64,000 bases of DNA from Candidatus Omnitrophota bacterium. Its GTDB lineage: Bacteria; Omnitrophota; Gorgyraeia; Gygaellales; Profunditerraquicolaceae. Under the pieces are notes generated by a model. It made no database searches, was not told where the DNA came from, and saw nothing but the letters and a program-made list of their open reading frames with translations. Numbering within the stretch: position 1 is the first letter of the stretch; each line of letters opens with the position of its first letter. Positions 1,043 to 16,561 of the stretch are shown here, in pieces. The translations under genes and the position numbers were made by a program. Location of the stretch: positions 120,697-184,696 of the forward strand of contig JBAZKC010000002.1 of assembly GCA_041651035.1 (NCBI GenBank), given 5' to 3'.

Positions 1043-1423
1043 GTGGCTAAAATACAAAGTTTTGAAGATTTAACTGTTTGGCAAAAAAGCCATGCGTTAG
1101 CCTTGGAGATTTATAAAATTACAAAGCATTTTCCATCAGAAGAAAAATTTGGATTGGTTTCGCAAATGAGAAGAGCGTCGGTTTCGGTTGCCGCGAATAT
1201 TGCGGAAGGGTTTAAAAGAAGAGGAAAAAGAGATAAAATAAATTTTTACAATATATCGCAAGGTTCGTTAACAGAGTTGGATTATTATTTAATTTTAGTT
1301 AAAGATTTAAAATATTTAGATTCTGATTCTGTCGGTAAGCTTAAACTTGTTGTAGATGAAGTTGGGAAGATGTTAAATGGCTTAATTTCAGCCATTGAAT
1401 TATCCCTAACCCCTGTCTACTAA
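1043..1423 (+). CDS. Four-helix-bundle protein (TIGR02436, the '23S rRNA intervening-sequence protein' family); GTG start
   Basis: Sequence WQKSHALALEIYKITKHFPSEEKFGLVSQMRRASVSVAANIAEGF is the hallmark of this family. Flanked by inverted TAGTAGGTAG repeats. Confidence 0.8.
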   Translation: MAKIQSFEDLTVWQKSHALALEIYKITKHFPSEEKFGLVSQMRRASVSVAANIAEGFKRRGKRDKINFYNISQGSLTELDYYLILVKDLKYLDSDSVGKLKLVVDEVGKMLNGLISAIELSLTPVY

Positions 1424-2390: not shown

Positions 2391-2455
2391 GATATGCTAA
2401 AATTTCCTTTGCATAATAAATTTAGTATGATATAATTTTAAGATATGCCAGAATT
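2384..2455. repeat. Two direct copies of the AAGATATGCYARAATT element. The second copy spans the GalT-like start codon. A TATAAT lies at 2431-2436.
   Basis: cctcgtaagatatgctaaaatt at 2384-2405 and taattttaagatatgccagaatt at 2432-2455. The same 22-mer recurs at 41765 and, inverted, at 44684. Confidence 0.7.
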
Positions 2456-3473
2456 AAGAAAAGATCCGATCATAGGTAGATGGGTAATTATTGCCACTGA
2501 GCGCGCCAGGCGGCCTGATCAATTCAGCGGCCAGCCGCAGGAGGTTGTGCCTGAGGGGGAGGTTTGCCCTTTTTGTGAGGGTAATGAATCCAAGACTCCT
2601 CCGGAAATATACGCGCTCAGGCCCGGGCATTCAGCTGCAAATACCCCTGGATGGGAATTAAGGGTTGTGCCCAGTATCGCGCCGTTCTTAAGGATAGAAG
2701 GCAGCCTTGACCGCAGGGGCAATGGCTTGTATGACCTGATGAATGGTGTTGGGGCCCATGAGATCGTCATCGAGACAAATCAGCACATAGCCAACATGGC
2801 GGATTTAAGTGAGGAGCAGATAGCCAAAGTCCTCACTTGTTATACAGACAGGATCACGGATCTGGAAAAGGACAAGCGTTTCAAATACGTCTTAGTATTT
2901 AAAAACTATGGTTGGACAGCCGGCGGCGGAAGTGTTAAGCATTCAAGGTCTCAGTTGATCGCTACCCCGGTTAACCCTAAACGAGTTAAGGAAGAATTAG
3001 TAGGTGCTAAGGCGTATTATGAGTATCATGAAAGATGCGTATTCTGCGATCTGATAAGGCAGGAGATAGCATCCAAGGACAGGCTTATATTGGATATCGA
3101 CGGTTTTATAGCGATAACGCCTTTTGCCGCAAGGTTCCCTTTTGAAGTCTGGATCCTGCCAAAGAAACATTCCCCTGATTTTACCAGCCTGGAAATGTCC
3201 ATGCGCCTTGACCTTGGCCGGGTAATAAAGAAAGTCCTGGCTAAATTGAAAAAGGGATTAAATGATCCGCCTTACAATTATGTCCTGCACACAGCTCCTT
3301 TCAGGCGCCAGGAGGTGGGTTATTGGAAAAGTATAGATAATGATTACCACTGGCATATTGAAATTATGCCCCGGCTTACCCGTGTAGCGGGTTTTGAGTG
3401 GGGCACCGGATTTTATATCTGCCCTTTGCCGCCTGAAGACGCGGCAAAGTTTTTAAGAGAGGTTGAAGTTTAA
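2445..3473 (+). CDS. GalT/HIT-family hexose-1-phosphate nucleotidyltransferase-like paralog 1. The catalytic His-Pro-His is replaced by His-Ser-Arg.
   Basis: CPFCEGNE zinc motif and GalT-like C-terminal HWHIEI motif. KHSRSQLIATP aligns with EHPHIQTIALP of the downstream paralog. Confidence 0.7.
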   Translation: MPELRKDPIIGRWVIIATERARRPDQFSGQPQEVVPEGEVCPFCEGNESKTPPEIYALRPGHSAANTPGWELRVVPSIAPFLRIEGSLDRRGNGLYDLMNGVGAHEIVIETNQHIANMADLSEEQIAKVLTCYTDRITDLEKDKRFKYVLVFKNYGWTAGGGSVKHSRSQLIATPVNPKRVKEELVGAKAYYEYHERCVFCDLIRQEIASKDRLILDIDGFIAITPFAARFPFEVWILPKKHSPDFTSLEMSMRLDLGRVIKKVLAKLKKGLNDPPYNYVLHTAPFRRQEVGYWKSIDNDYHWHIEIMPRLTRVAGFEWGTGFYICPLPPEDAAKFLREVEV

Positions 3474-4474
3474 TGTCAGAATTAAGAAGAGACCCTATTG
3501 TAGGAAGATGGGTGATAGTAGATACGGATCACCCCAGCAAGCCGGAAGATTTCCAGCATGAGCCTCATACCTGGCGGGGAGGGACGTGCCCCTTCTGTTA
3601 CGGTAACGAGCTATTGACCCCGCCGGAAATAGATTCGACCAGGGATCCTAATACCAGGCCTAATACATCCGGCTGGCAGGTCCGTGTGGTCCCGAATAAA
3701 TTCCCCGCGCTCCAGATCGAAGGCGATATAGACAGGCGGGCATTGGGTATTTATGATATGTCCAACGGCGTTGGAGCGCATGAGGTGCTGATCGATTCGC
3801 CCTACCATAATAAAAACCTTCCGGACCTGTTAAACAGCGAGATAGAGTGTATTATCTCTATGCTTTGCCGCAGAGCCATAGATCTTACCAAAGACCATCG
3901 TTTTAAATATTTAATGATCTTTAAAAACTATGGACCCGCGGCAGGGGCTTCATTAGAGCATCCGCATATCCAGACCATCGCTCTTCCTATGGTTCCTAAG
4001 AACGTCTTAGAAGAGATACACGGCTCAAGTAACTATTTTAAATACCGCGAACGCTGCATATTCTGCGATATGGTAAGGCAGGAGGAACAGGAAAAGGAAA
4101 GAATAGTCCTGGAAAACAAATATTTTCTTTCTTTTTGCCCGTTTGTCTCGCGGTTTCCTTTTGAGATCTGGATAATTCCCAAGAAGCACAGCAGCCATTT
4201 TTGTTATATACATCCTGAAGAGATCCCGTCGCTGGCGGAAATAATAAAAGATACTTTATCTAAATTAAGAAATGTTTTTCCTGACCCGGCGTATAATTTT
4301 ATTATTCATTCCTTGCCGATAAACGGCGATGCCGGGGCCGGCGTAGGTTATTATCATTGGCATATTGAGATTATGCCGAAATTAACACGCGTTGCTGGTT
4401 TTGAGTGGGGATCGGGTTTTTATGTTGTTTCAACCCCGCCGGAACTGGCCGCTAAATATTTAAGAGAAAAATAA
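3473..4474 (+). CDS. galT: Galactose-1-phosphate uridylyltransferase-family protein (class I GalT-like) with a canonical HPH active site
   Basis: CPFCYGNE motif, EHPHIQ motif and HWHIEIMPKLTRVAGFEWG motif. TAATG overlap with the upstream paralog. Confidence 0.75.
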   Translation: MSELRRDPIVGRWVIVDTDHPSKPEDFQHEPHTWRGGTCPFCYGNELLTPPEIDSTRDPNTRPNTSGWQVRVVPNKFPALQIEGDIDRRALGIYDMSNGVGAHEVLIDSPYHNKNLPDLLNSEIECIISMLCRRAIDLTKDHRFKYLMIFKNYGPAAGASLEHPHIQTIALPMVPKNVLEEIHGSSNYFKYRERCIFCDMVRQEEQEKERIVLENKYFLSFCPFVSRFPFEIWIIPKKHSSHFCYIHPEEIPSLAEIIKDTLSKLRNVFPDPAYNFIIHSLPINGDAGAGVGYYHWHIEIMPKLTRVAGFEWGSGFYVVSTPPELAAKYLREK

Positions 4475-5509
<1,035 letters not shown>

Positions 5510-5532
5510 TTTTTTAGAAGTTTATCTGCTGG

Positions 5533-5570
5533 AAAAGGAGCGACAGAAATGTCGCTCCTTTTTTGTTTTA
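5533..5570 (+). terminator. Rho-independent terminator after gap
   Basis: Hairpin ggagcgaca-gaaa-tgtcgctcc followed by ttttttg. Confidence 0.8.
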
Positions 5571-5707: not shown

Positions 5708-6403
5708 ATGGAGCTTAAAAAGCGTATACCTATAAACAACTGGCCTAAGGAAGACCGGCCCAGGGAGAAGCTATTAGAGAATGGCGAGCATACTTTAAGC
5801 GATTCCGAGCTGCTGGCGATCATTTTGAGGACAGGAGTAAAGGGAGAAAGCGCCTTGGATCTGGCAAGGAGGATTTTACGGAAATTTAAGACTTTTCGTA
5901 AAATGGGGCAGGCGGATCCGCATCACTGGAAGGAATTAAAGGGCCTGGGTGACGCGAAGCTTGCCCAGATAAAAGCATCCATCGAGATAGCAAGAAGATA
6001 CCAGGAAGAAAAACTTAAGGAGAGCCGTCCTAAAGTAGAGTCTTCAAAAGATGTGGTTGGTATCCTCAGGCCCCGGATGCAGGATTTAAAAAAAGAGGTA
6101 TTTAAGGTTTTGTTCTTAAATTCACAAAACAGGATTATAGATATAATTGAGATAGAGGAAGGAAGCGTGGATCAGGCAAGGCCTATAATAAGAGAGGTTT
6201 TTCAAGAGGCCCTAAAGCAGTTTGCTTCTTTTCTGATCTGTGTCCACAATCATCCTTCCGGAGATCCTAAGCCTAGCGAAGAAGACAAAGAGTTCACGCG
6301 GGCATTAGCTACCGCAGGAGACGCGCTGCTTATAAAATGCCTGGATCATATAATTATCGGAAACGGGAGTTATTTCAGTTTTTGTGATGAGAAGCTTATT
6401 TAA
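5708..6403 (+). CDS. radC: DNA repair protein RadC (JAMM/MPN-domain, UPF0758)
   Basis: C-terminal HNHPSGDPKPSEED JAMM-like motif. N-terminal helix-hairpin-helix-like region. Confidence 0.85.
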   Translation: MELKKRIPINNWPKEDRPREKLLENGEHTLSDSELLAIILRTGVKGESALDLARRILRKFKTFRKMGQADPHHWKELKGLGDAKLAQIKASIEIARRYQEEKLKESRPKVESSKDVVGILRPRMQDLKKEVFKVLFLNSQNRIIDIIEIEEGSVDQARPIIREVFQEALKQFASFLICVHNHPSGDPKPSEEDKEFTRALATAGDALLIKCLDHIIIGNGSYFSFCDEKLI

Positions 6404-6621
6404 GGAAGGAAGTCCTGAAGTTTCTTTTTATAGATCGCCGCGAATTCTTTTAATTGGACGGTGTCAATGCGGCGCTGTCCGGCTTCTAATTTGGAGATGT
6501 AGGATTGCGTCCTGCCTAATTTTTTAGCCGCGTCTACCTGCCTGAGTTTTGCCGCTTTACGCGCTTTAATCAGCTTACCGACTAAATCCTTATGGCTCTT
6601 TGTAAAAATAGTTTTATCCAT
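6400..6621 (-). CDS. XRE-family helix-turn-helix transcriptional regulator of 74 aa. The ORF track over-extends upstream; the start is taken at MDKTIF.
   Basis: KLRQVDAAKKLGRTQSYISKLEAGQRRIDTVQL is a canonical HTH_3 (XRE) motif. Confidence 0.7.
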   Translation of the reverse strand: MDKTIFTKSHKDLVGKLIKARKAAKLRQVDAAKKLGRTQSYISKLEAGQRRIDTVQLKEFAAIYKKKLQDFLP

Positions 6622-6666
6622 TTCGCTTGACACCTCAGGATTCCTATAATATACTAATCTTGTTAA

Positions 6667-6685
6667 TATTCCAAAATGGAATATA
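6667..6685. promoter_or_regulatory. Perfect inverted repeat atattcca-aaa-tggaatat upstream of the XRE regulator gene; candidate operator
   Basis: Direct reading. It sits in the divergent promoter region between the xre gene and the secreted-protein gene. Confidence 0.4.
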
Positions 6686-6829
6686 GATATTAGGCAGATT
6701 AGGATGAAACACCCTGCGCTTATCGTGCCCGGAGCATAACAGGTATTGCGCCGGGTATAACCCAATAAGTTACACCCAAACATATCGGATTGTTTGGTGT
6801 GGCCTTTCTGGCCAAGGAGGGTTTAATCT

Positions 6830-7321
6830 ATGCGAAAATTAGGGTTTTTAGTTGTTTTTATCTTGGGTTTATTTAATTTATGCCTTGCCGCGGAGGAATC
6901 CATTACCATTACTACGTATTATCCGTCACCTTATGGAAGCTATAACCAAGTAGAGGTGCACCGCAGCGTTACTTATAAACCGGTAGATAAGAATACGCTT
7001 GATGATCCTAAAGAAGGGGAGTTGGTTTATAATTCTTCTGATGATTCGTTATATCTTTACAACGGCTCTACCTGGGTAAAGCAAGGAGGAGGGAGTACCT
7101 GCGTCGTCACCTACAATAGTGTTGTTGGTAGCTGTAGTTGTCCCAGTGGTTGGACTCTTAAACTAGATCTCGGTCCCTGGGGCTACTGCTACAGCACCTA
7201 CTACCGCCCCGCCTTTTTCCGCCCGCCGGGCGGAGGCTGCCCCAGCGACAGCAACTGGGGGGGGAGCGGCACCAATATCGGCGCCTCTCTCGGTGAGGGT
7301 TGTTTTTGTTGCCAAAACTAA
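6830..7321 (+). CDS. Secreted hypothetical protein with a signal peptide and a C-terminal domain containing 10 Cys
   Basis: N-terminal MRKLGFLVVFILGLFNLCLA signal peptide. C-terminal CSCPSGW...CYSTYY...GGGCPSD...GCFCCQN. SD aaggaggg upstream. Confidence 0.6.
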   Translation: MRKLGFLVVFILGLFNLCLAAEESITITTYYPSPYGSYNQVEVHRSVTYKPVDKNTLDDPKEGELVYNSSDDSLYLYNGSTWVKQGGGSTCVVTYNSVVGSCSCPSGWTLKLDLGPWGYCYSTYYRPAFFRPPGGGCPSDSNWGGSGTNIGASLGEGCFCCQN

Positions 7322-8092
7322 ATGATTCGTAGGGGAAACTGGTTATTTATTACACTTTTCTTTTGCTCCAACACTTTTGCTTACGATATTAAACCTTATT
7401 TAAACCAATCTCCTTGCGAGGACGAAAAACTTAACTTGGTTTTTTGTTCTTTAAATTACCAAAATAAAGAAGATTCCTTAGAAGATACAAAGATACTTAT
7501 CCGAAGGCTAAAGGGAACCAATCCTTTTGATGAATTCAGGAACCTTGGATTTTGGTATATAGCCCTATCTAAAGAGGAAGAGAGGGAGATCTTCAAGCCA
7601 GCGCCAAGTTTTCCTCCCTGGCAAGTCCCTCAAGGCTTCATAAACAGTATCTCCAAACGCATTAAATCTGTTTACAAGTTAATCATAATTGACGCAAGAG
7701 GATATGTCTCATGTTCGGAGTTATCTTCTCTTGCTAAAACTTCTTTGATCATGTTAGGTAAGGCACGATATAAAGATGAAAACAGTTTTACTAAAGGGTT
7801 TTTGCATGAGTTGGGCCATTCTTTAGGCCTGCGTGATGAGAGTCCGCAGGGTGAAGCAATGCTTTGTTTACCCGGGCCGCCAAATTGCGCCGTTACCAGG
7901 CAGGAAGCAGAGAGGCTTTGGGGTGATCTAGTAGGAAAAGATTCAAGAGCAAATTATATTTCCGGCTGCTGCGGGAATAAGAATTATATCCGGCCAACCA
8001 TTGCTTCTTTGATGAATGATCCGGATAAGGCAGAGGATTTTGGTCCGGTGAATGAGAGGTATTTGCGCCATGTTTTAGGGATAGGCCCCTAA
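7322..8092 (+). CDS. Putative secreted zinc metallopeptidase with an HExxHxxGxxDE motif (M64-like)
   Basis: Hydrophobic N-terminus, HELGHSLGLRDES motif and a Cys-rich C-terminus. The start abuts the stop of the upstream gene. Confidence 0.5.
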   Translation: MIRRGNWLFITLFFCSNTFAYDIKPYLNQSPCEDEKLNLVFCSLNYQNKEDSLEDTKILIRRLKGTNPFDEFRNLGFWYIALSKEEEREIFKPAPSFPPWQVPQGFINSISKRIKSVYKLIIIDARGYVSCSELSSLAKTSLIMLGKARYKDENSFTKGFLHELGHSLGLRDESPQGEAMLCLPGPPNCAVTRQEAERLWGDLVGKDSRANYISGCCGNKNYIRPTIASLMNDPDKAEDFGPVNERYLRHVLGIGP

Positions 8093-8146
8093 GATCGATT
8101 CTCCGAGAACCACCTATCGGGGTCAGTCCCCTGGATTTAAAAATCT

Positions 8147-8176
8147 TGACATTGTATATCATTATGATATACTTTA
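8147..8176 (+). promoter_or_regulatory. Sigma70-like promoter for the toxin-antitoxin operon: TTGACA-N16-TATACT
   Basis: Direct reading: cttgacattgtatatcattatgatatact, followed by the SD ggaggtg. Confidence 0.55.
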
Positions 8177-8192
8177 AGCGGAGGTGATAAAG

Positions 8193-8426
8193 ATGTCCGC
8201 GATGATGAATAAAGAATTGTTGATAAGGATGCCATCTTCTCTTTATGAACAAACGATTAAACTCTCCAGGAAAAGATACATGACCATTTCTTCTTTTATC
8301 CGGGAATTGATTATCGAACAGGTAGAAAGCTCTCTATCCGCGGAAGAAGAAAAGATTGTCGCGCAGGCCGAGAGGCAGTATCTAAAAGGAAGAGGCGTTA
8401 ACTGGAGAAAAGTGAAGCGTGGTTAA
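8193..8426 (+). CDS. Ribbon-helix-helix (CopG-like) antitoxin
   Basis: Small protein directly upstream of, and overlapping, a RelE/ParE toxin gene. SD ggaggtg upstream. The ORF track begins at a GTG at 8184. Confidence 0.6.
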   Translation: MSAMMNKELLIRMPSSLYEQTIKLSRKRYMTISSFIRELIIEQVESSLSAEEEKIVAQAERQYLKGRGVNWRKVKRG

Positions 8427-8691
8427 CTTTGAAGTCCTTTTAATGCCTCAAGCGCTTAAATTCTATAAAACCTGTCCGGAAGAACTCGCCGGCAGGCTAA
8501 ATAAGTGCTTTGAAGAGCTAGAAGGCAATCCTTTCTTCGGGCCGAATATTAAAATATTGAAAGGCGAAAAGAGGCGTTATAGATATCGTATAGGTACCTA
8601 TCGGGTAATTTACGGCATTGACAAAGAAAGCAATAAGGTTATTATTACTTTAATTGCTCCCCGCCATTCTGTATATCGAAATATAAGTTAA
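8419..8691 (+). CDS. RelE/ParE-family type II toxin. Start is either GTG at 8419 or ATG at 8443.
   Basis: YRYRIGTYRVIYGIDKESNKVIITLIAPRHSVY is the typical RelE/ParE C-terminal region. 8-nt overlap with the antitoxin. Confidence 0.7.
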   Translation: MVNFEVLLMPQALKFYKTCPEELAGRLNKCFEELEGNPFFGPNIKILKGEKRRYRYRIGTYRVIYGIDKESNKVIITLIAPRHSVYRNIS

Positions 8692-8708
8692 CGAATAAAT
8701 CTTTCCGC

Positions 8709-8790
8709 AGGGGCTGTCCCTTAACTTCGGCTTAGGGACAGGCTCCTAAGACCAGCCCTTAGGGGACTACATTTCGGACCCAGTCCCTGT
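8709..8790. repeat. Cluster of GGGGAC-N-GTCCCC family palindromes
   Basis: Copies: aggggctgtccctta, cttagggacaggctcctaag, cccttaggggactac...cagtccctg. Confidence 0.7.
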
Positions 8791-8812
8791 TTTTTATGCT
8801 ATAATCCCGCTT

Positions 8813-11068
8813 ATGAACTATCTAACCGTACTGGTTATAGGCTTAAGTGGGATAGTCGTGCAGGTTTTGCTTTTGCGCGAACTGCTGGTGAGTTTCTACG
8901 GCAATGAATTAACCTTAGGGATAATTCTGGCTAATTGGATTCTCGCGGAAGCTTCGGGCGTATTTATCTCCGGGAAGTTTATTGAAAGGGTTAAAAATAA
9001 AGCAAACGTATTTATTATACTACAGGTATTATTTTCCATACTATTGCCTGTATCTATTTATTTGTCCCGCACCTTTAAGAGCCTGATAGGCATTCCTTTT
9101 GGCGAAGGAGTGGGATTATACACCATATTTTATGCTTCTTTCTTGATAATCCTTCCGGTGGGGTTCTGCCACGGTGCATTATTCAGCTCTCTGTGCAAGA
9201 TATGCTCTATAAAGATTAAAGATTTGGCCGGCGCGATAGGCAAAGTATATGCGTGGGAGACGATCGGCACAATCTGCGGCGGAATAATCCTTACCTATCT
9301 ATTCATACCATATCTGAATTCTTTTCAAATAGTTTTCATCCTATCCGTAATTAATCTTGCGGCTTGTTTATTTTTCTTTAAAGATACGGCTAAGGTTTTG
9401 AAATATATTGTTTTGGTTTTGATATTTACGGCAAGTATTTTTTCTTTGCAAGGCGGGATAAAATACCTGAACAAGCTTTCTATCAATAAACAATGGAAGC
9501 AGCAGGAAATCCTGGATTACCGGAATTCTAATTACGGCAATATTGTCGTAACCAAAAGAGAGGGGCAATACACGTTTTTTTATAACGGCATACCTGTAAT
9601 AACTACTCCGTATCCGGACAAGCAATTCGTCCAGGAATTCGGGAATTTGCCTTTGTTATTTTCTAAAAGCCCTAAAGAGGTACTGGTAATAAGCGCCGGG
9701 GCAGGCGGCCTGATAAACGAGATCTTGAAACACCCTGTAAAAAAGATTGATTACGCGGAACTTGATCCTTTACTCATAGAAATGTTAAGGCAATATCCGT
9801 CAGAACTCACGCAAAAGGAATTAACCGATCCGCGGGTTAATATTATGAATTTAGACGGCAGGTTTTTCGTTAAGAATACGCCTAATAAATATGATGTAAT
9901 TTTGATCGGCCTATCTAAGCCGTCGGATTTAAGCGCAAACCGCCTGTTTACCCGCGAATTCTTTTTTTTGGCTAAAGAGAGGCTAAATCCGGATGGGATA
10001 GTAGCGTTAACTTTACCCGGTTCCCTGACTTATCTAAGCCGGGAATTAAAAGACATTAATGCCTGCGTATTGAATGGGCTTAAAGATAGCTATGCTTATG
10101 TCCGTGTTATCCCCGGAGATTACAATATGTTCTTGGCTTCTAACAGTAGAGATATACTGGAAATCACTCCGGATATAATTACGCGAAAGATAGAGCGGAA
10201 AAATATAAGAACCGATATTCTGGTACCAGCTTACATAAACTTTAGGCTAAATAAGGCATGGTCGGATTGGTTCCAGCGTTCATTAACAGGGGCAACCGAA
10301 AAAGTTAACCAGGACCTAAGGCCTTTTGCGGTATTCCAGATGCTGATTCTTTGGAATAAGCAGTTTTCTCCGGGGCTTGCGTATATTTTTGGAATGTTGG
10401 GGAATTTGAATACAGGTTTCTTAGCGGTATTAATATTAGGCATAACTTTGATATTATTTTGTATCTTTTGTAGGAAACGAAGCACCAGTCCAGCTATTGT
10501 ATACAGTATTGCTACTACGGGATTATTCGGCATGCTGGCAAATCTGGTCTTGATCTTTAGTTTCCAGGTTTTCTATGGTTATTTATATTATATGATAGGA
10601 ATATTGATCAGTATCTTTATGGCCGGCATAGCGCTGGGCAGTATTTTTATGACAACTGCCCTTAAAAGGATTAAGGATGGCTTAAGGTTATTTATTGAGC
10701 TTGAGGCAGGGATAATCGTATTTTCCTGCATAATGGCAGTAACATTAACCAGATTTATGTGGTCAGCTCGCCATATCCCATTGATTTTTGCCACACTGCT
10801 TTTTATTTCCGGGTTATTTCTAGGATTGGAATTTCCTCTGGCAAGTAGAATATATCCGGGAAGAAAGGAAGAGGCGGGTAATACTGTAGGAGTGCTTTAT
10901 AGCGCTGACCTGATAGGCGGCTGGGTTGCTGGTGTATTGGGGAGCATTATATTGCTGCCTGTTTTAGGGCTTTTTAATACCTGCCTGGTTATAATTATGT
11001 TTAAACTAAGCAGCCTCTTTCTATTAGGGACACCCAATCTGCTAAAGCCGAGGGTGTCCCCTAAATAA
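8813..11068 (+). CDS. Polytopic membrane protein fused to a spermidine-synthase-like (aminopropyltransferase/methyltransferase fold) domain
   Basis: Multi-transmembrane N-terminus. Central region VLVISAGAGGLINEIL...NIMNLDGRFF...YDVILIG matches the spermidine synthase fold. A TATAAT lies 7 nt upstream of the ATG. Confidence 0.65.
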   Translation: MNYLTVLVIGLSGIVVQVLLLRELLVSFYGNELTLGIILANWILAEASGVFISGKFIERVKNKANVFIILQVLFSILLPVSIYLSRTFKSLIGIPFGEGVGLYTIFYASFLIILPVGFCHGALFSSLCKICSIKIKDLAGAIGKVYAWETIGTICGGIILTYLFIPYLNSFQIVFILSVINLAACLFFFKDTAKVLKYIVLVLIFTASIFSLQGGIKYLNKLSINKQWKQQEILDYRNSNYGNIVVTKREGQYTFFYNGIPVITTPYPDKQFVQEFGNLPLLFSKSPKEVLVISAGAGGLINEILKHPVKKIDYAELDPLLIEMLRQYPSELTQKELTDPRVNIMNLDGRFFVKNTPNKYDVILIGLSKPSDLSANRLFTREFFFLAKERLNPDGIVALTLPGSLTYLSRELKDINACVLNGLKDSYAYVRVIPGDYNMFLASNSRDILEITPDIITRKIERKNIRTDILVPAYINFRLNKAWSDWFQRSLTGATEKVNQDLRPFAVFQMLILWNKQFSPGLAYIFGMLGNLNTGFLAVLILGITLILFCIFCRKRSTSPAIVYSIATTGLFGMLANLVLIFSFQVFYGYLYYMIGILISIFMAGIALGSIFMTTALKRIKDGLRLFIELEAGIIVFSCIMAVTLTRFMWSARHIPLIFATLLFISGLFLGLEFPLASRIYPGRKEEAGNTVGVLYSADLIGGWVAGVLGSIILLPVLGLFNTCLVIIMFKLSSLFLLGTPNLLKPRVSPK

Positions 11069-14738: not shown

Positions 14739-15338
14739 ATGCTAAAACTATTTGAGCCTTATATGCTTGCCTTTATACCCATATTTGTGGCAGTAGATGC
14801 CATAGGCAATATTCCTGTGTTTGTTTCTATTGTTGAGGGGGTAAACAAGAAGCAGAAACGCAGGATCATCCTGGAATCAGTTATCACCGCGACCGCTTTA
14901 GCGGTCCTTTTTATGTTCGTCGGTAAATGGGTATTAGGGGCTATCGGCGTAACCATACCGGATTTTCAGATCGCCGGAGGAATACTTTTATTCGTGATAG
15001 CTGTGCGGCTTTTATTACCCGGTTCGCATAAGGCTCTTTTGTCCAATGGCCGGGATAAAGACGCGGGCGTCTTTCCTTTGGGAACACCTTTGATCACCGG
15101 GCCGGCGGTGCTAACTACGGCGTTGATGATACGGGATAGTTTCGGTATCGCGCCCGCGTTTGTTTCTTTGGTCCTGAATATGCTGATCACCTGGTTGACG
15201 CTCATGCAGGCGGATTTTATTATAAAATTTATGGGCTCCAGCGGCACGCGCGCTTTTTCCAAGATCATGTATATTTTATTGGCTGCAATAGCCGTAATGA
15301 TGGTGAGGCGCGGTATGTTAGGCGTAATGCTAAGATGA
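14739..15338 (+). CDS. MarC-family (UPF0056) integral membrane protein
   Basis: Sequence IPIFVAVDAIGNIPVF and overall MarC-like topology. Confidence 0.7.
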   Translation: MLKLFEPYMLAFIPIFVAVDAIGNIPVFVSIVEGVNKKQKRRIILESVITATALAVLFMFVGKWVLGAIGVTIPDFQIAGGILLFVIAVRLLLPGSHKALLSNGRDKDAGVFPLGTPLITGPAVLTTALMIRDSFGIAPAFVSLVLNMLITWLTLMQADFIIKFMGSSGTRAFSKIMYILLAAIAVMMVRRGMLGVMLR

Positions 15339-16561
15339 TGCGCAGTGTCTTAACATTTATAATGGCAGGCGGTAAAGGAGAGCGGCTGTATCCTTTAACT
15401 AAAGACAGGGCCAAGCCGGCAGTGCCGTTTGGCGGCATATACAGGATCATAGACTTTACTTTAAGTAACTGCATAAATTCAGGCCTGCGCAAGATTTATC
15501 TTCTTACCCAGTATAAATCCGCCTCTTTACAAAGGCATATACGGCTTGGCTGGAATATTTTACCGTCTGAGTTAGGCCAATTCATCGAGATACTTCCCGC
15601 CCAACAGAGGGTCGGCGAATCCTGGTATTTGGGGACTGCCGACGCGATCTATCAAAATCTTTACACCTTAGAGATTGATTATCCTGATGAAGTCCTGATA
15701 CTGGCCGGAGATCATATTTATAAAATGAATTACTATACCATGATAGACTATCATCGGGAACAGGACGCGGATTTGACGGTGGGGGTGGTAGAGGTAGATA
15801 AGGACAAGGCCGCTCATTTAGGCGTAGTAGAGGTAGATAATGCCGGCAAGGTAATAGGATTTGAAGAGAAACCCGCCAAGCCTAAAACAATACCCTATCA
15901 GCCGGATAAGATATACGCGTCTATGGGCATATATGTTTTTAAGCATCCCATCCTTGAGCAGGAGCTTCAGGAGGACGCCAAGAAACGCAGCTCTACCCAT
16001 GATTTTGGCAAGGACATAATCCCGCAGATGCTTAAGAAGGGCTTAAAGGTGGCTGTCTTTAACTTTATCGACGAGAATAAGAAAGAGGCGCAATATTGGC
16101 GGGATATCGGGACTATGGATGCCTATTATGAAGCGAATATGGATTTAGTGCAGGTTGATCCCGTATTTAATCTTTATGACAAAAACTGGCCCATAAGAAC
16201 CCTTCAGGAACAATTTCCTTCAGCTAAAACAGTATTCTCCGGTGAAGAAGTTACCGGCAGGGTGGGTTTAGTGCTTGATTCTGTAGTTTCTAACGGCTGC
16301 ATCGTAAGCGGCGGCAGGGTCCAGCGTTCAATACTTTCTCCGAATGTCAGGGTGAATAGTTACTGCCAGGTTTACGATTCTATCCTTATGGAAGGCGTGA
16401 ATGTGGCTAGATACGCGAAAATAAAGAAGGCAATAATTGATAAAGATGTAAGTATCCCCCAGGGCGTAGTGATCGGATATGACCCGGAAGAAGACAAAAA
16501 AAGGTTTTATGTGACTGAATCAGGGATAGTCGTAGTGGCGAAAGGGACGGAGATTAAATGA
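15335..16561 (+). CDS. glgC: Glucose-1-phosphate adenylyltransferase
   Basis: N-terminal AGGKGERLYPLTKDRAKPAVPFGG motif. C-terminal left-handed beta-helix region. Confidence 0.9.
   Translation: MMRSVLTFIMAGGKGERLYPLTKDRAKPAVPFGGIYRIIDFTLSNCINSGLRKIYLLTQYKSASLQRHIRLGWNILPSELGQFIEILPAQQRVGESWYLGTADAIYQNLYTLEIDYPDEVLILAGDHIYKMNYYTMIDYHREQDADLTVGVVEVDKDKAAHLGVVEVDNAGKVIGFEEKPAKPKTIPYQPDKIYASMGIYVFKHPILEQELQEDAKKRSSTHDFGKDIIPQMLKKGLKVAVFNFIDENKKEAQYWRDIGTMDAYYEANMDLVQVDPVFNLYDKNWPIRTLQEQFPSAKTVFSGEEVTGRVGLVLDSVVSNGCIVSGGRVQRSILSPNVRVNSYCQVYDSILMEGVNVARYAKIKKAIIDKDVSIPQGVVIGYDPEEDKKRFYVTESGIVVVAKGTEIK

Follow-up and report, generated by a model that had tools for sequence, protein, structure and literature searches.

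The subject of this analysis is a pair of adjacent genes in a 64,000-nucleotide stretch of DNA (the window) from a Candidatus Omnitrophota bacterium (GenBank assembly GCA_041651035.1, contig JBAZKC010000002.1, positions 120,697 to 184,696 of the forward strand). Both genes encode proteins resembling galactose-1-phosphate uridylyltransferase (GalT), and they are termed UP (the upstream copy) and DN (the downstream copy). Their products probably form an obligate heterodimeric nucleotidyltransferase with a single composite active site. This was deduced from the residues that each copy has lost. The losses in UP, which include the catalytic nucleophile, concern residues that a GalT chain supplies to its own site, while the losses in DN concern residues that a chain supplies to its partner, and the two sets of residues are in contact across the interface of human GALT. 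The proposal is also supported by a natural single-chain fusion showing the same division of labour.

Gene pair and nucleophile position

The initial annotation of the window had predicted two GalT-like open reading frames at 2445-4474, and these were found at exactly those coordinates, with products sharing 49% identity along their entire length (E = 5e-123). The motifs that it quoted were all present in the translations. These are the zinc knuckle CPFC(E/Y)GNE, which reads CPFCEGNE in one copy and CPFCYGNE in the other, the segment HWHIEIMP...AGFEWG, present in UP and DN alike as part of YHWHIEIMP(R/K)LTRVAGFEWG, and the motifs KHSRSQ of UP and EHPHIQ of DN. The TAATG overlap of the genes was also located, the junction being GAAGTTTAATGTCAG (GTT TAA TG) with one base common to the TAA stop of UP and the ATG start of DN. 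The translational coupling that had been claimed is suggested by this overlap and is supported by gaps of -8 to +9 nucleotides between the UP stop and the DN start, observed in 28 of the 33 tandem pairs in which the DN start could be placed.

Both proteins score above the cutoff for the Pfam families GalP_UDP_transf and GalP_UDP_tr_C, corresponding to two tandem HIT-like half-barrel domains. Among solved structures, the closest relative is the Arabidopsis ADP-glucose phosphorylase At5g18200 (1z84/2h39), which was matched by DN with E = 1e-63 as compared to about 1e-21 for E. coli GalT. An AlphaFold2 monomer model of UP (predicted local distance difference test score of 94.9, predicted template modelling score of 0.92) gave the At5g18200 structures 2h39 and 1z84 as its top Foldseek matches (template modelling scores TMq 0.83 and TMt 0.91, 38% identity), followed by class I GalTs (TMq about 0.8). 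The zinc ligands of At5g18200 (1Z84, 1ZWJ, 2H39), Cys63/Cys66/His133/His184 and Cys216/Cys219/His255/His310, are all conserved in UP and DN. The first zinc site consists of Cys41/Cys44/His114/His166 in UP and Cys39/Cys42/His112/His163 in DN and is 95-100% conserved in the UP, DN and single-copy groups; the second, structural site, made of the equivalents of Cys198/Cys201/His242/His302, is 100% conserved in UP and DN.

Of the two models for Leloir-pathway GalT, TIGR00209 gave scores (106.8 and 127.5) just over its cutoff of 102.1, and the E. coli-type model NF008724 gave scores (126 and 131) far under its cutoff of 448. None of galK, galE and galM was recognised near the pair, whose neighbours in about 35 loci are priA, fmt, gap, pgk and tpi. 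A Leloir-type GalT is unlikely, since the NF008724 scores are so low and gal genes are missing from the vicinity. The assignment to the GalT-like family made in the initial annotation was retained, with the refinement that the proteins are nearer to At5g18200 than to Leloir-pathway GalT. Both UP and DN are currently annotated as "galactose-1-phosphate uridylyltransferase," a label that is probably wrong on the substrate and that hides the inability of UP to form the covalent intermediate.

The replacement of the nucleophile was deduced from an alignment of 116 sequences that includes E. coli GalT and At5g18200. UP His166 corresponds to E. coli His164 and At5g18200 His184, UP Arg168 to E. coli His166 and At5g18200 His186, and UP Gln170 to E. 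coli Gln168 and At5g18200 Gln188. The HSR segment of UP aligned unambiguously with HPH, in agreement with the earlier claim that Arg stands at the position of the nucleophilic His. A misalignment of the two segments was ruled out, as the His and Gln flanking the nucleophile position are invariant and no alternative His is available. An active His elsewhere in UP, which would have overturned the claim, was not found either; the surroundings of the motif hold no further His, and no His is conserved specifically among UP copies. The His-x-His-x-Gln motif, in which the second His is the nucleophile, is present in DN, which shares it with At5g18200, and it is replaced in UP by His-Ser-Arg-Ser-Gln. 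For this reason UP is, as judged from its sequence, a structural and not a catalytic member of the GalT branch of the HIT superfamily.

The same replacement was observed across related genomes, with a consistency far greater than chance would give. A genome scan with one genome per species gave 80 loci, of which 34 carry UP and DN in tandem in the same order as here and 2 more end after UP. Complete tandem loci with the same order and strand number 35 (this stretch, L001-L034 except L017/L025, L038, L070, and L086) and are nearly all labelled Omnitrophota; L017 and L025, where the contig ends after the UP copy, were left out of this count. The pattern is an UP copy with His-x-Arg followed by a DN copy with His-x-His. 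Arg occupies the nucleophile position in 35 of the 37 upstream orthologues from the genome loci and is encoded among UP orthologues by CGT, CGC, CGG, CGA, and AGG; the AGG codon of this stretch is two changes from any His codon. The best 120 clusters of UP homologues (80-87% identity, those with a label being all Omnitrophota save one Deltaproteobacteria and one "bacterium") include 118 with the motif, and in these the position is Arg in 113 and Lys in 5; the other 2 gave no motif match.

A decaying pseudogene, or a sequencing error behind the Arg, could account for the loss of the nucleophile and for nothing more. Both are considered to have a negligible chance of being correct, because the UP reading frame is intact at every locus, with 76-87% identity to its closest orthologues (best 120 clusters and loci L001-L012), because UP is more conserved than its active partner DN in 435 of 496 genome-pair comparisons, and because the Arg is reached via five codons, the one used here lying two changes from His. 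The comparison of these sequences indicates that UP, a paralog with no nucleophile, is under strong purifying selection.

Complementary losses across the subunit interface

Losses were scored for each paralog against a reference set of 44 single-copy relatives from other phyla, in which 108 alignment columns reach at least 90% conservation. The active-site test set was taken from positions described in the GalT literature and comprised 13 own-chain (cis) and 5 partner-chain (trans) positions. UP was found to have lost 7 of the 13 cis positions and none of the 5 trans positions, and DN none of the cis and 2 of the trans positions (Fisher p = 0.028, small numbers). The seven positions lost from UP, in E. 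coli numbering and with the share of UP copies that keep the ancestral residue in parentheses, are Asn77, now Ser (3%), Lys78, now Ile/Val (5%), Phe/Tyr79, now Ala/Ser/Thr (5%), Val108, now Ile (27%), Ala160, now Gly/Ser (19%), Ser161, now Gly with a one-residue insertion (14%), and the nucleophile His166, now Arg (5%). DN retains these seven positions at 88-100% and the loop residues 77-79 at 91-100%. The N-terminal Arg pair (E. coli Arg28/Arg31, human Arg48/Arg51, At5g18200 Arg41/Arg44) is kept in 98%/95% of the 44 single-copy relatives, in 100%/94% of UP copies, and in 6%/6% of DN copies. The replacements in DN are His, Asn, Lys, Ser, Asp, Gly, or Leu, with column entropies of 2.8 and 2.3 bits, and DN is also relaxed at the Ile-Asn-Pro that follows the C-terminal sugar loop.

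The significance of these positions follows from the architecture of characterised relatives. Class I GalTs and At5g18200 are homodimers with their active sites between the subunits (bioRxiv 10.64898/2026.09.13.751320). In the human and E. coli enzymes, which have the same fold as UP and DN, the sites are shared across the interface, the arginines equivalent to Arg48/Arg51 meeting the 97-101 loop of the other chain and the substrate. To the glucose 1-phosphate site of human GALT, one chain contributes Lys334-Gln346 and the other Gln188 and Asn173, and Arg48 is said to come from the chain opposite Gln188 (PMC5081055). Molecular dynamics on the human crystal structure gave stable intersubunit contacts between Arg48(A) and Phe99(B) and between Arg51(B) and Asp98(A), with glucose 1-phosphate held mainly by Arg48 and Arg51 (PMC8513031). 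Since human residues 97-99 are equivalent to E. coli 77-79, the loop remodelled in UP and the Arg pair lost from DN are expected to touch across the interface. By this homology, all of the losses would fall in one of the two sites of an UP-DN dimer. In the other site, which would be made of the His-Pro-His pocket of DN with Arg20/Arg23 and the sugar loop of UP, every ancestral residue is kept. A homodimer of DN would miss the Arg pair at both of its sites, and a homodimer of UP would miss both nucleophiles.

The proposed mechanism is as follows. The ancestral enzyme would have been a homodimer whose two sites each combined a cis set (the zinc-held His-x-His-x-Gln, the ribose loop Asn-Lys-Phe, and the phosphate loop Gly-Ala-Ser) with a trans set from the partner (its N-terminal Arg pair and its C-terminal sugar loop GFEWG). 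Following duplication, the cis set would have survived in DN and the trans set in UP; DN would have lost the trans Arg pair, and UP the cis set, its nucleophile being now Arg. Only the UP-DN dimer would then have one complete site, comprising DN His165 and the DN pocket together with UP Arg20/Arg23 and the UP sugar loop. This site would run a ping-pong reaction via a nucleotidyl-His intermediate, the reaction probably being ADP-glucose + inorganic phosphate <-> glucose 1-phosphate + ADP. The second site, made of the UP pocket and the DN arm, would be catalytically dead, with the conserved Arg/Lys probably filling or neutralising the former phosphate pocket.

The natural fusion is P0121 (599 residues; L085:5001-6800; GCA_003558915.1), a single chain of one UP-like and one DN-like unit that was the best match in the library of 50%-identity representatives. 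Its first unit has an N-terminal arm MSELRKDP..RWVIIAVERAKRP with both Arg and a RVAGFEWGTGIYINP loop and lacks both the CPFC knuckle and His-x-His-x-Gln. The second unit starts at ECPFC, so that it lacks the arm, and it carries EHPHTQ. The gene is situated directly upstream of gap-pgk-tpi-secG, and this position identifies the locus as orthologous. The fusion appears to be the same division of labour taken further and joined covalently, as read from one contig for which an assembly artefact is not fully excluded. A divergent tandem pair at the same priA-fmt locus (L086, P0133) has an UP pocket that is more eroded and an UP arm that is unchanged.

The combination of a catalytic and a pseudo-enzyme subunit put forward in the initial annotation is favoured by the complementary cis/trans losses and by the fusion. 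DN would be its catalytic part. UP evolves more slowly than DN and very probably gives essential catalytic residues in trans, and for these two reasons it is better termed a half-enzyme than a passive scaffold.

Evidence against the heterodimer and alternative explanations

Several observations weigh against an obligate heterodimer with a single site. The Fisher test was built on very few positions, and the cis/trans assignment was carried over from human and E. coli GalT, to which identity is about 22%. Conservation extends to the C-terminal sugar loop of DN, which on this model would face the dead site; the interface may require it. Of the 135 His-type family representatives, 35, or about a quarter, are missing one of the two Arg, so that the Arg pair is perhaps not strictly essential. 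The replaced residues Ser77 (97%) and Arg168 of UP are themselves conserved and not merely relaxed, and on this account the dead pocket may still have a role, either structural or in binding an effector. At the nucleophile position, His persists in two deep UP lineages, L028 and L032, whose upstream copies fall in different deep branches among the Arg-type copies; either His was replaced by Arg several times or there was reversion to His. The relationship of UP and DN was taken from a neighbour-joining tree with 100 bootstraps, a phylogeny of the two copies having been suggested with the initial annotation. UP (67%) and DN (70%) were each monophyletic but never formed a joint clade, and because the two are not sisters in this tree, local duplication is only one possible origin: duplication within Omnitrophota, an older duplication, and transfer would all be compatible with it. 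Finally, some relatives that lack the nucleophile, among them P0128, P0132, P0135, and P0145, have no adjacent GalT-like partner within the 2-8 kb of contig available (loci L082-L084 and L087-L090; 2-3 kb at L083, L084, and L089).

The two His-retaining copies, both from Omnitrophota, read RHAHSQ (L028:5998-7029) and KHAHTQ (L032:5983-7014), and in both the Asn77/Lys78/Phe79 loop is already remodelled though the His is retained. At L028, the one of the two that was checked, the downstream partner is already without the Arg pair.

The nucleophilic His is missing in about 13 of the 150 closest family representatives, which have Ser, Tyr, Val, Ile, Cys, Leu, or Arg instead; besides the four named above, these include P0150, P0163, P0196, P0204, P0211, P0216, and P0259. 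As an adjacent partner was lacking in four of the five cases looked up, tandem pairing is not general for such members. The loss of the nucleophile is, by these sequences, recurrent in the GalT-like family and not always accompanied by a tandem partner. Neighbours of the stand-alone genes include pantothenate kinase and Usp, acetate kinase, and a baeRF-family protein. At L090:1704-2708, an UP-like gene (KHCSSR, Arg pair kept) follows fmt as in the Omnitrophota pairs; no DN-like partner was detected by tblastn in the 6.7-kb locus, and no gene was called in the 850 nucleotides after the UP-like gene. Another family member, P0155 (871 residues, possibly eukaryotic), has two complete GalT-like units, both with His-x-His-x-Gln, after a long low-complexity N terminus, and this tandem-fused pseudo-dimer shows no obvious complementary loss.

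The conservation of UP-specific residues (Ser77 at 97%, Arg168 at 95%, and Asn117, Glu141, Asn177, and Arg288 at 84-89%) would also be explained if the heterodimer exists and its remodelled UP pocket is a regulatory or ligand-sensing site, where Arg/Lys168 and Ser77 bind an anionic effector (inorganic phosphate, a sugar phosphate, or a nucleotide). The pocket would then tune the single catalytic site, like the non-catalytic subunits of ADP-glucose pyrophosphorylases. Consistent with this, position 168 is restricted to Arg, Lys, or His, the rate of evolution is lower in UP than in DN, and the pair is apparently co-transcribed with glycolytic genes. However, the DN residues that would complete the UP pocket are highly variable, and UP positions 78, 79, 160, and 161 vary as well (entropy of 1.2-2.2 bits), unlike those of a defined ligand site, while no ligand can be proposed from the sequence. 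This explanation was judged rather unlikely. A more specific version, in which the UP pocket was rebuilt round Arg/Lys and Ser77 as an anion or sugar-phosphate effector site tying the turnover of a nucleoside diphosphate (NDP)-glucose, ADP-glucose or other, to the glycolytic state, is an unlikely proposal too. If true, it would explain the move of the pair from the glycogen cluster to the gap-pgk-tpi operon across Omnitrophota, and the enzyme would be the first allosteric HIT-fold nucleotidyltransferase derived from a recycled catalytic site.

An UP enzyme with altered chemistry, already raised in the initial annotation, was deemed improbable. In such an enzyme, in-line phosphorolysis or transfer would proceed with no covalent His, and Arg168 would stabilise the transition state. 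The strict selection for Arg would fit this, as would the retention by UP of both zinc sites with the ligand His166 and of Gln170, Asn154, and Gly160. Against it, UP no longer has Ser161 or the ribose/nucleotide loop residues Asn77, Lys78, and Phe79, and the trans Arg pair for the UP pocket would be missing in an UP-DN dimer. The other residues lining the pocket, those of the DN arm among them, vary more than would be expected of a defined second catalytic site in UP, and a single new catalytic role is difficult to square with the occurrence of His in two lineages and Lys in several. We know of no HIT-fold enzyme with a non-covalent in-line mechanism, and none was found in the literature either. 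An equally small chance is given to the absence of any interaction, with DN an ordinary homodimer that tolerates the loss of the Arg pair and UP a separate non-catalytic binding or moonlighting protein. The His-type representatives that lack one Arg and the stand-alone genes with no nucleophile are both compatible with such an arrangement. It accords poorly with the strictly conserved adjacency and order of the genes, their overlapping junctions, the occurrence of the complementary losses on residues that contact each other, and the existence of a single-chain fusion of both types.

Genomic context, substrate, and relation to known systems

The features of the locus are collected in Table 1. 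The gene order priA-fmt-UP-DN-gap(-pgk-tpi-secG) is conserved, with gap, encoding glyceraldehyde-3-phosphate dehydrogenase, as a neighbour in about 33 loci, and gap is probably in the same transcript as UP and DN. No Shine-Dalgarno sequence was found between the promoter-like site and the UP start codon. Since the promoter-like site ends so close to the ATG and no Shine-Dalgarno sequence intervenes, the UP mRNA may be leaderless or nearly so, as far as a consensus match can indicate. The promoter-like and terminator-like consensus matches together suggest a three-gene UP-DN-gap transcript.

Table 1. Coordinates of the gene pair, its active-site segments, and neighbouring features within the window
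Feature	Position	Strand	Description
UP, upstream GalT-like gene (copy 1)	2445..3473	+	342 residues; both zinc sites, N-terminal Arg pair, and C-terminal GFEWG loop kept; nucleophile gone
DN, downstream GalT-like gene (copy 2)	3473..4474	+	333 residues; full own-chain site and both zinc sites; no cross-interface Arg pair
TAATG stop/start overlap	3471..3475	+	similar junctions in most orthologous pairs
UP KHSRSQ	2937..2954	+	His166, zinc ligand, kept; Arg168 (AGG, 2946-2948) in place of nucleophile; Gln170 kept
DN EHPHIQ	3956..3973	+	canonical His-x-His-x-Gln; nucleophile His165 at 3965-3967
UP Arg20-Ala-Arg-Arg23	2502..2513	+	cross-interface Arg pair kept; equivalent to E. coli Arg28/Arg31 and human Arg48/Arg51
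UP Ser77-Ile-Ala-Pro-Phe81	2673..2687	+	remodelled own-chain nucleotide/ribose loop; ancestral Asn-Lys-Phe-Pro-Ala
DN His20-Pro-Ser-Lys23	3530..3541	+	places of the ancestral Arg pair, lost
Promoter-like TTTGCA-17-TATAAT with TG extension	2408..2436	+	consensus scan, 10/12 matches; ends 8 nucleotides before UP ATG
gap	4490..5509	+	15 nucleotides after DN; AAGGAGG ribosome-binding site
Terminator-like hairpin, 16-bp stem and T run	5530..5565	+	after gap; consensus scan
glgC homologue (ADP-glucose pyrophosphorylase)	15335..16561	+	NTP_transferase and GlgC-type beta-helix; 11 kb downstream of the pair; context

In this window, gap and pgk are separated by approximately 5.7 kb (5708-11068), and many related loci have pgk directly after gap. 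The interval contains radC, a minus-strand open reading frame, two small overlapping open reading frames (8184-8691), and a 751-residue membrane protein with a spermidine-synthase domain. Also between gap and pgk are two adjacent proteins with no Pfam match, at 6830-7321 (Cys- and Gly-rich, with a signal-like N terminus) and 7322-8092. Between priA and fmt, a 126-residue four-helix-bundle protein of the 23S rRNA-intervening-sequence or bAvd-like type is encoded at 1043-1423 (+); it is missing from most related loci.

The substrate can be named only tentatively as an NDP-glucose, probably ADP-glucose, used in transfer or phosphorolysis. An ADP-glucose-type reaction is the likeliest candidate because of the match to At5g18200 and because of the glycogen-gene neighbours, the fusions, and glgC. 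Single-copy relatives that keep both residue sets occur in Zixibacteria, Planctomycetota including Brocadia, Desulfobacterota-type metagenome-assembled genomes, Acidobacteriota, WOR-1, and a few Omnitrophota, where they adjoin glgA, glgC, GH57 enzymes, a GH57 branching enzyme, and glgB. Members of the GalT-like family are also fused to GlgA (the GT5 glycogen synthase) or to GH57 domains (P0156, P0189, P0212). The glgC product of the window is 62% identical to the GlgC encoded beside single-copy GalT-like genes in other phyla, and, as assigned by homology, this gene shows that the present genome has ADP-glucose metabolism. Among loci L036-L080, GalT-like genes lie inside glgA-glgC-GH57-glgB clusters in many phyla, and a histidine kinase/response regulator pair is often present as well. 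A 2024 review in Chem Rev on the alpha-glucan enzymes of prokaryotes makes no mention of the GalT-like family in the first 300,000 of its 445,374 characters.

The pair differs from its characterised relatives in several respects. In At5g18200, two identical chains form a homodimer that has two active sites, whereas the chains here are two and diverged; UP has Arg at the position of His186 and a remodelled nucleotide loop, and DN lacks the equivalents of Arg41 and Arg44. The class I GalTs are about 22% identical to the pair, which lacks the galK, galE, and galM neighbours. Mixed dimers with one defective site are known from human GALT patients, for example wild type/Q188R, as cited in PMC5081055. 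Unlike these disease heterodimers, the UP-DN asymmetry is evolved, fixed, and complementary and is not a disease allele.

A dead paralog under selection is likewise found in the prozymes, such as the trypanosomatid AdoMetDC/prozyme and deoxyhypusine synthase DHSc/DHSp, and on this model it is needed by its partner. The latter enzyme is described as a complex of a catalytically impaired and an inactive subunit. The prozymes differ from UP and DN in fold, domain of life, and chemistry; UP and DN are adjacent and overlapping in a bacterial operon, and their complex and partner dependence are deduced indirectly.

In the ADP-glucose pyrophosphorylases (plant small/large subunits, Firmicutes GlgC/GlgD), a catalytic subunit is combined with a degenerate modulating paralog. 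These enzymes belong to the same metabolic area as the proposed UP-DN enzyme, that of ADP-glucose and glycogen. They have an unrelated fold (a nucleotidyltransferase domain with a left-handed beta-helix) and are heterotetramers, and their sites are not split between chains in the UP-DN way. No description of the UP-DN pair, or of any heteromeric GalT/HIT enzyme, was found in the literature on GalT paralogs, ADP-glucose phosphorylase, HIT pseudoenzymes, Omnitrophota, and GH57-GalT-glycogen. The principle of an enzyme with a dead paralog is established elsewhere, and the apparent complementary cis/trans loss in the GalT family is the new part.

GalT, the enzyme behind classic galactosemia, is well known from textbooks, and the sharing of its sites across the interface explains why some alleles in patients are partly dominant. 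The widely conserved Omnitrophota pair resembles a natural experiment on this architecture, with the nucleophile pocket coming from one chain and the cross-interface arginines from the other. If confirmed, the pair would give the GalT branch its first heteromeric member, and the same would apply to the entire HIT superfamily, to judge from the literature searched. It would further provide a clear example from bacteria of duplicated subunits that have become locked into an obligate heterodimer through complementary degeneration, as well as an easily expressed system in which to study the dependence of one GalT site on the other.

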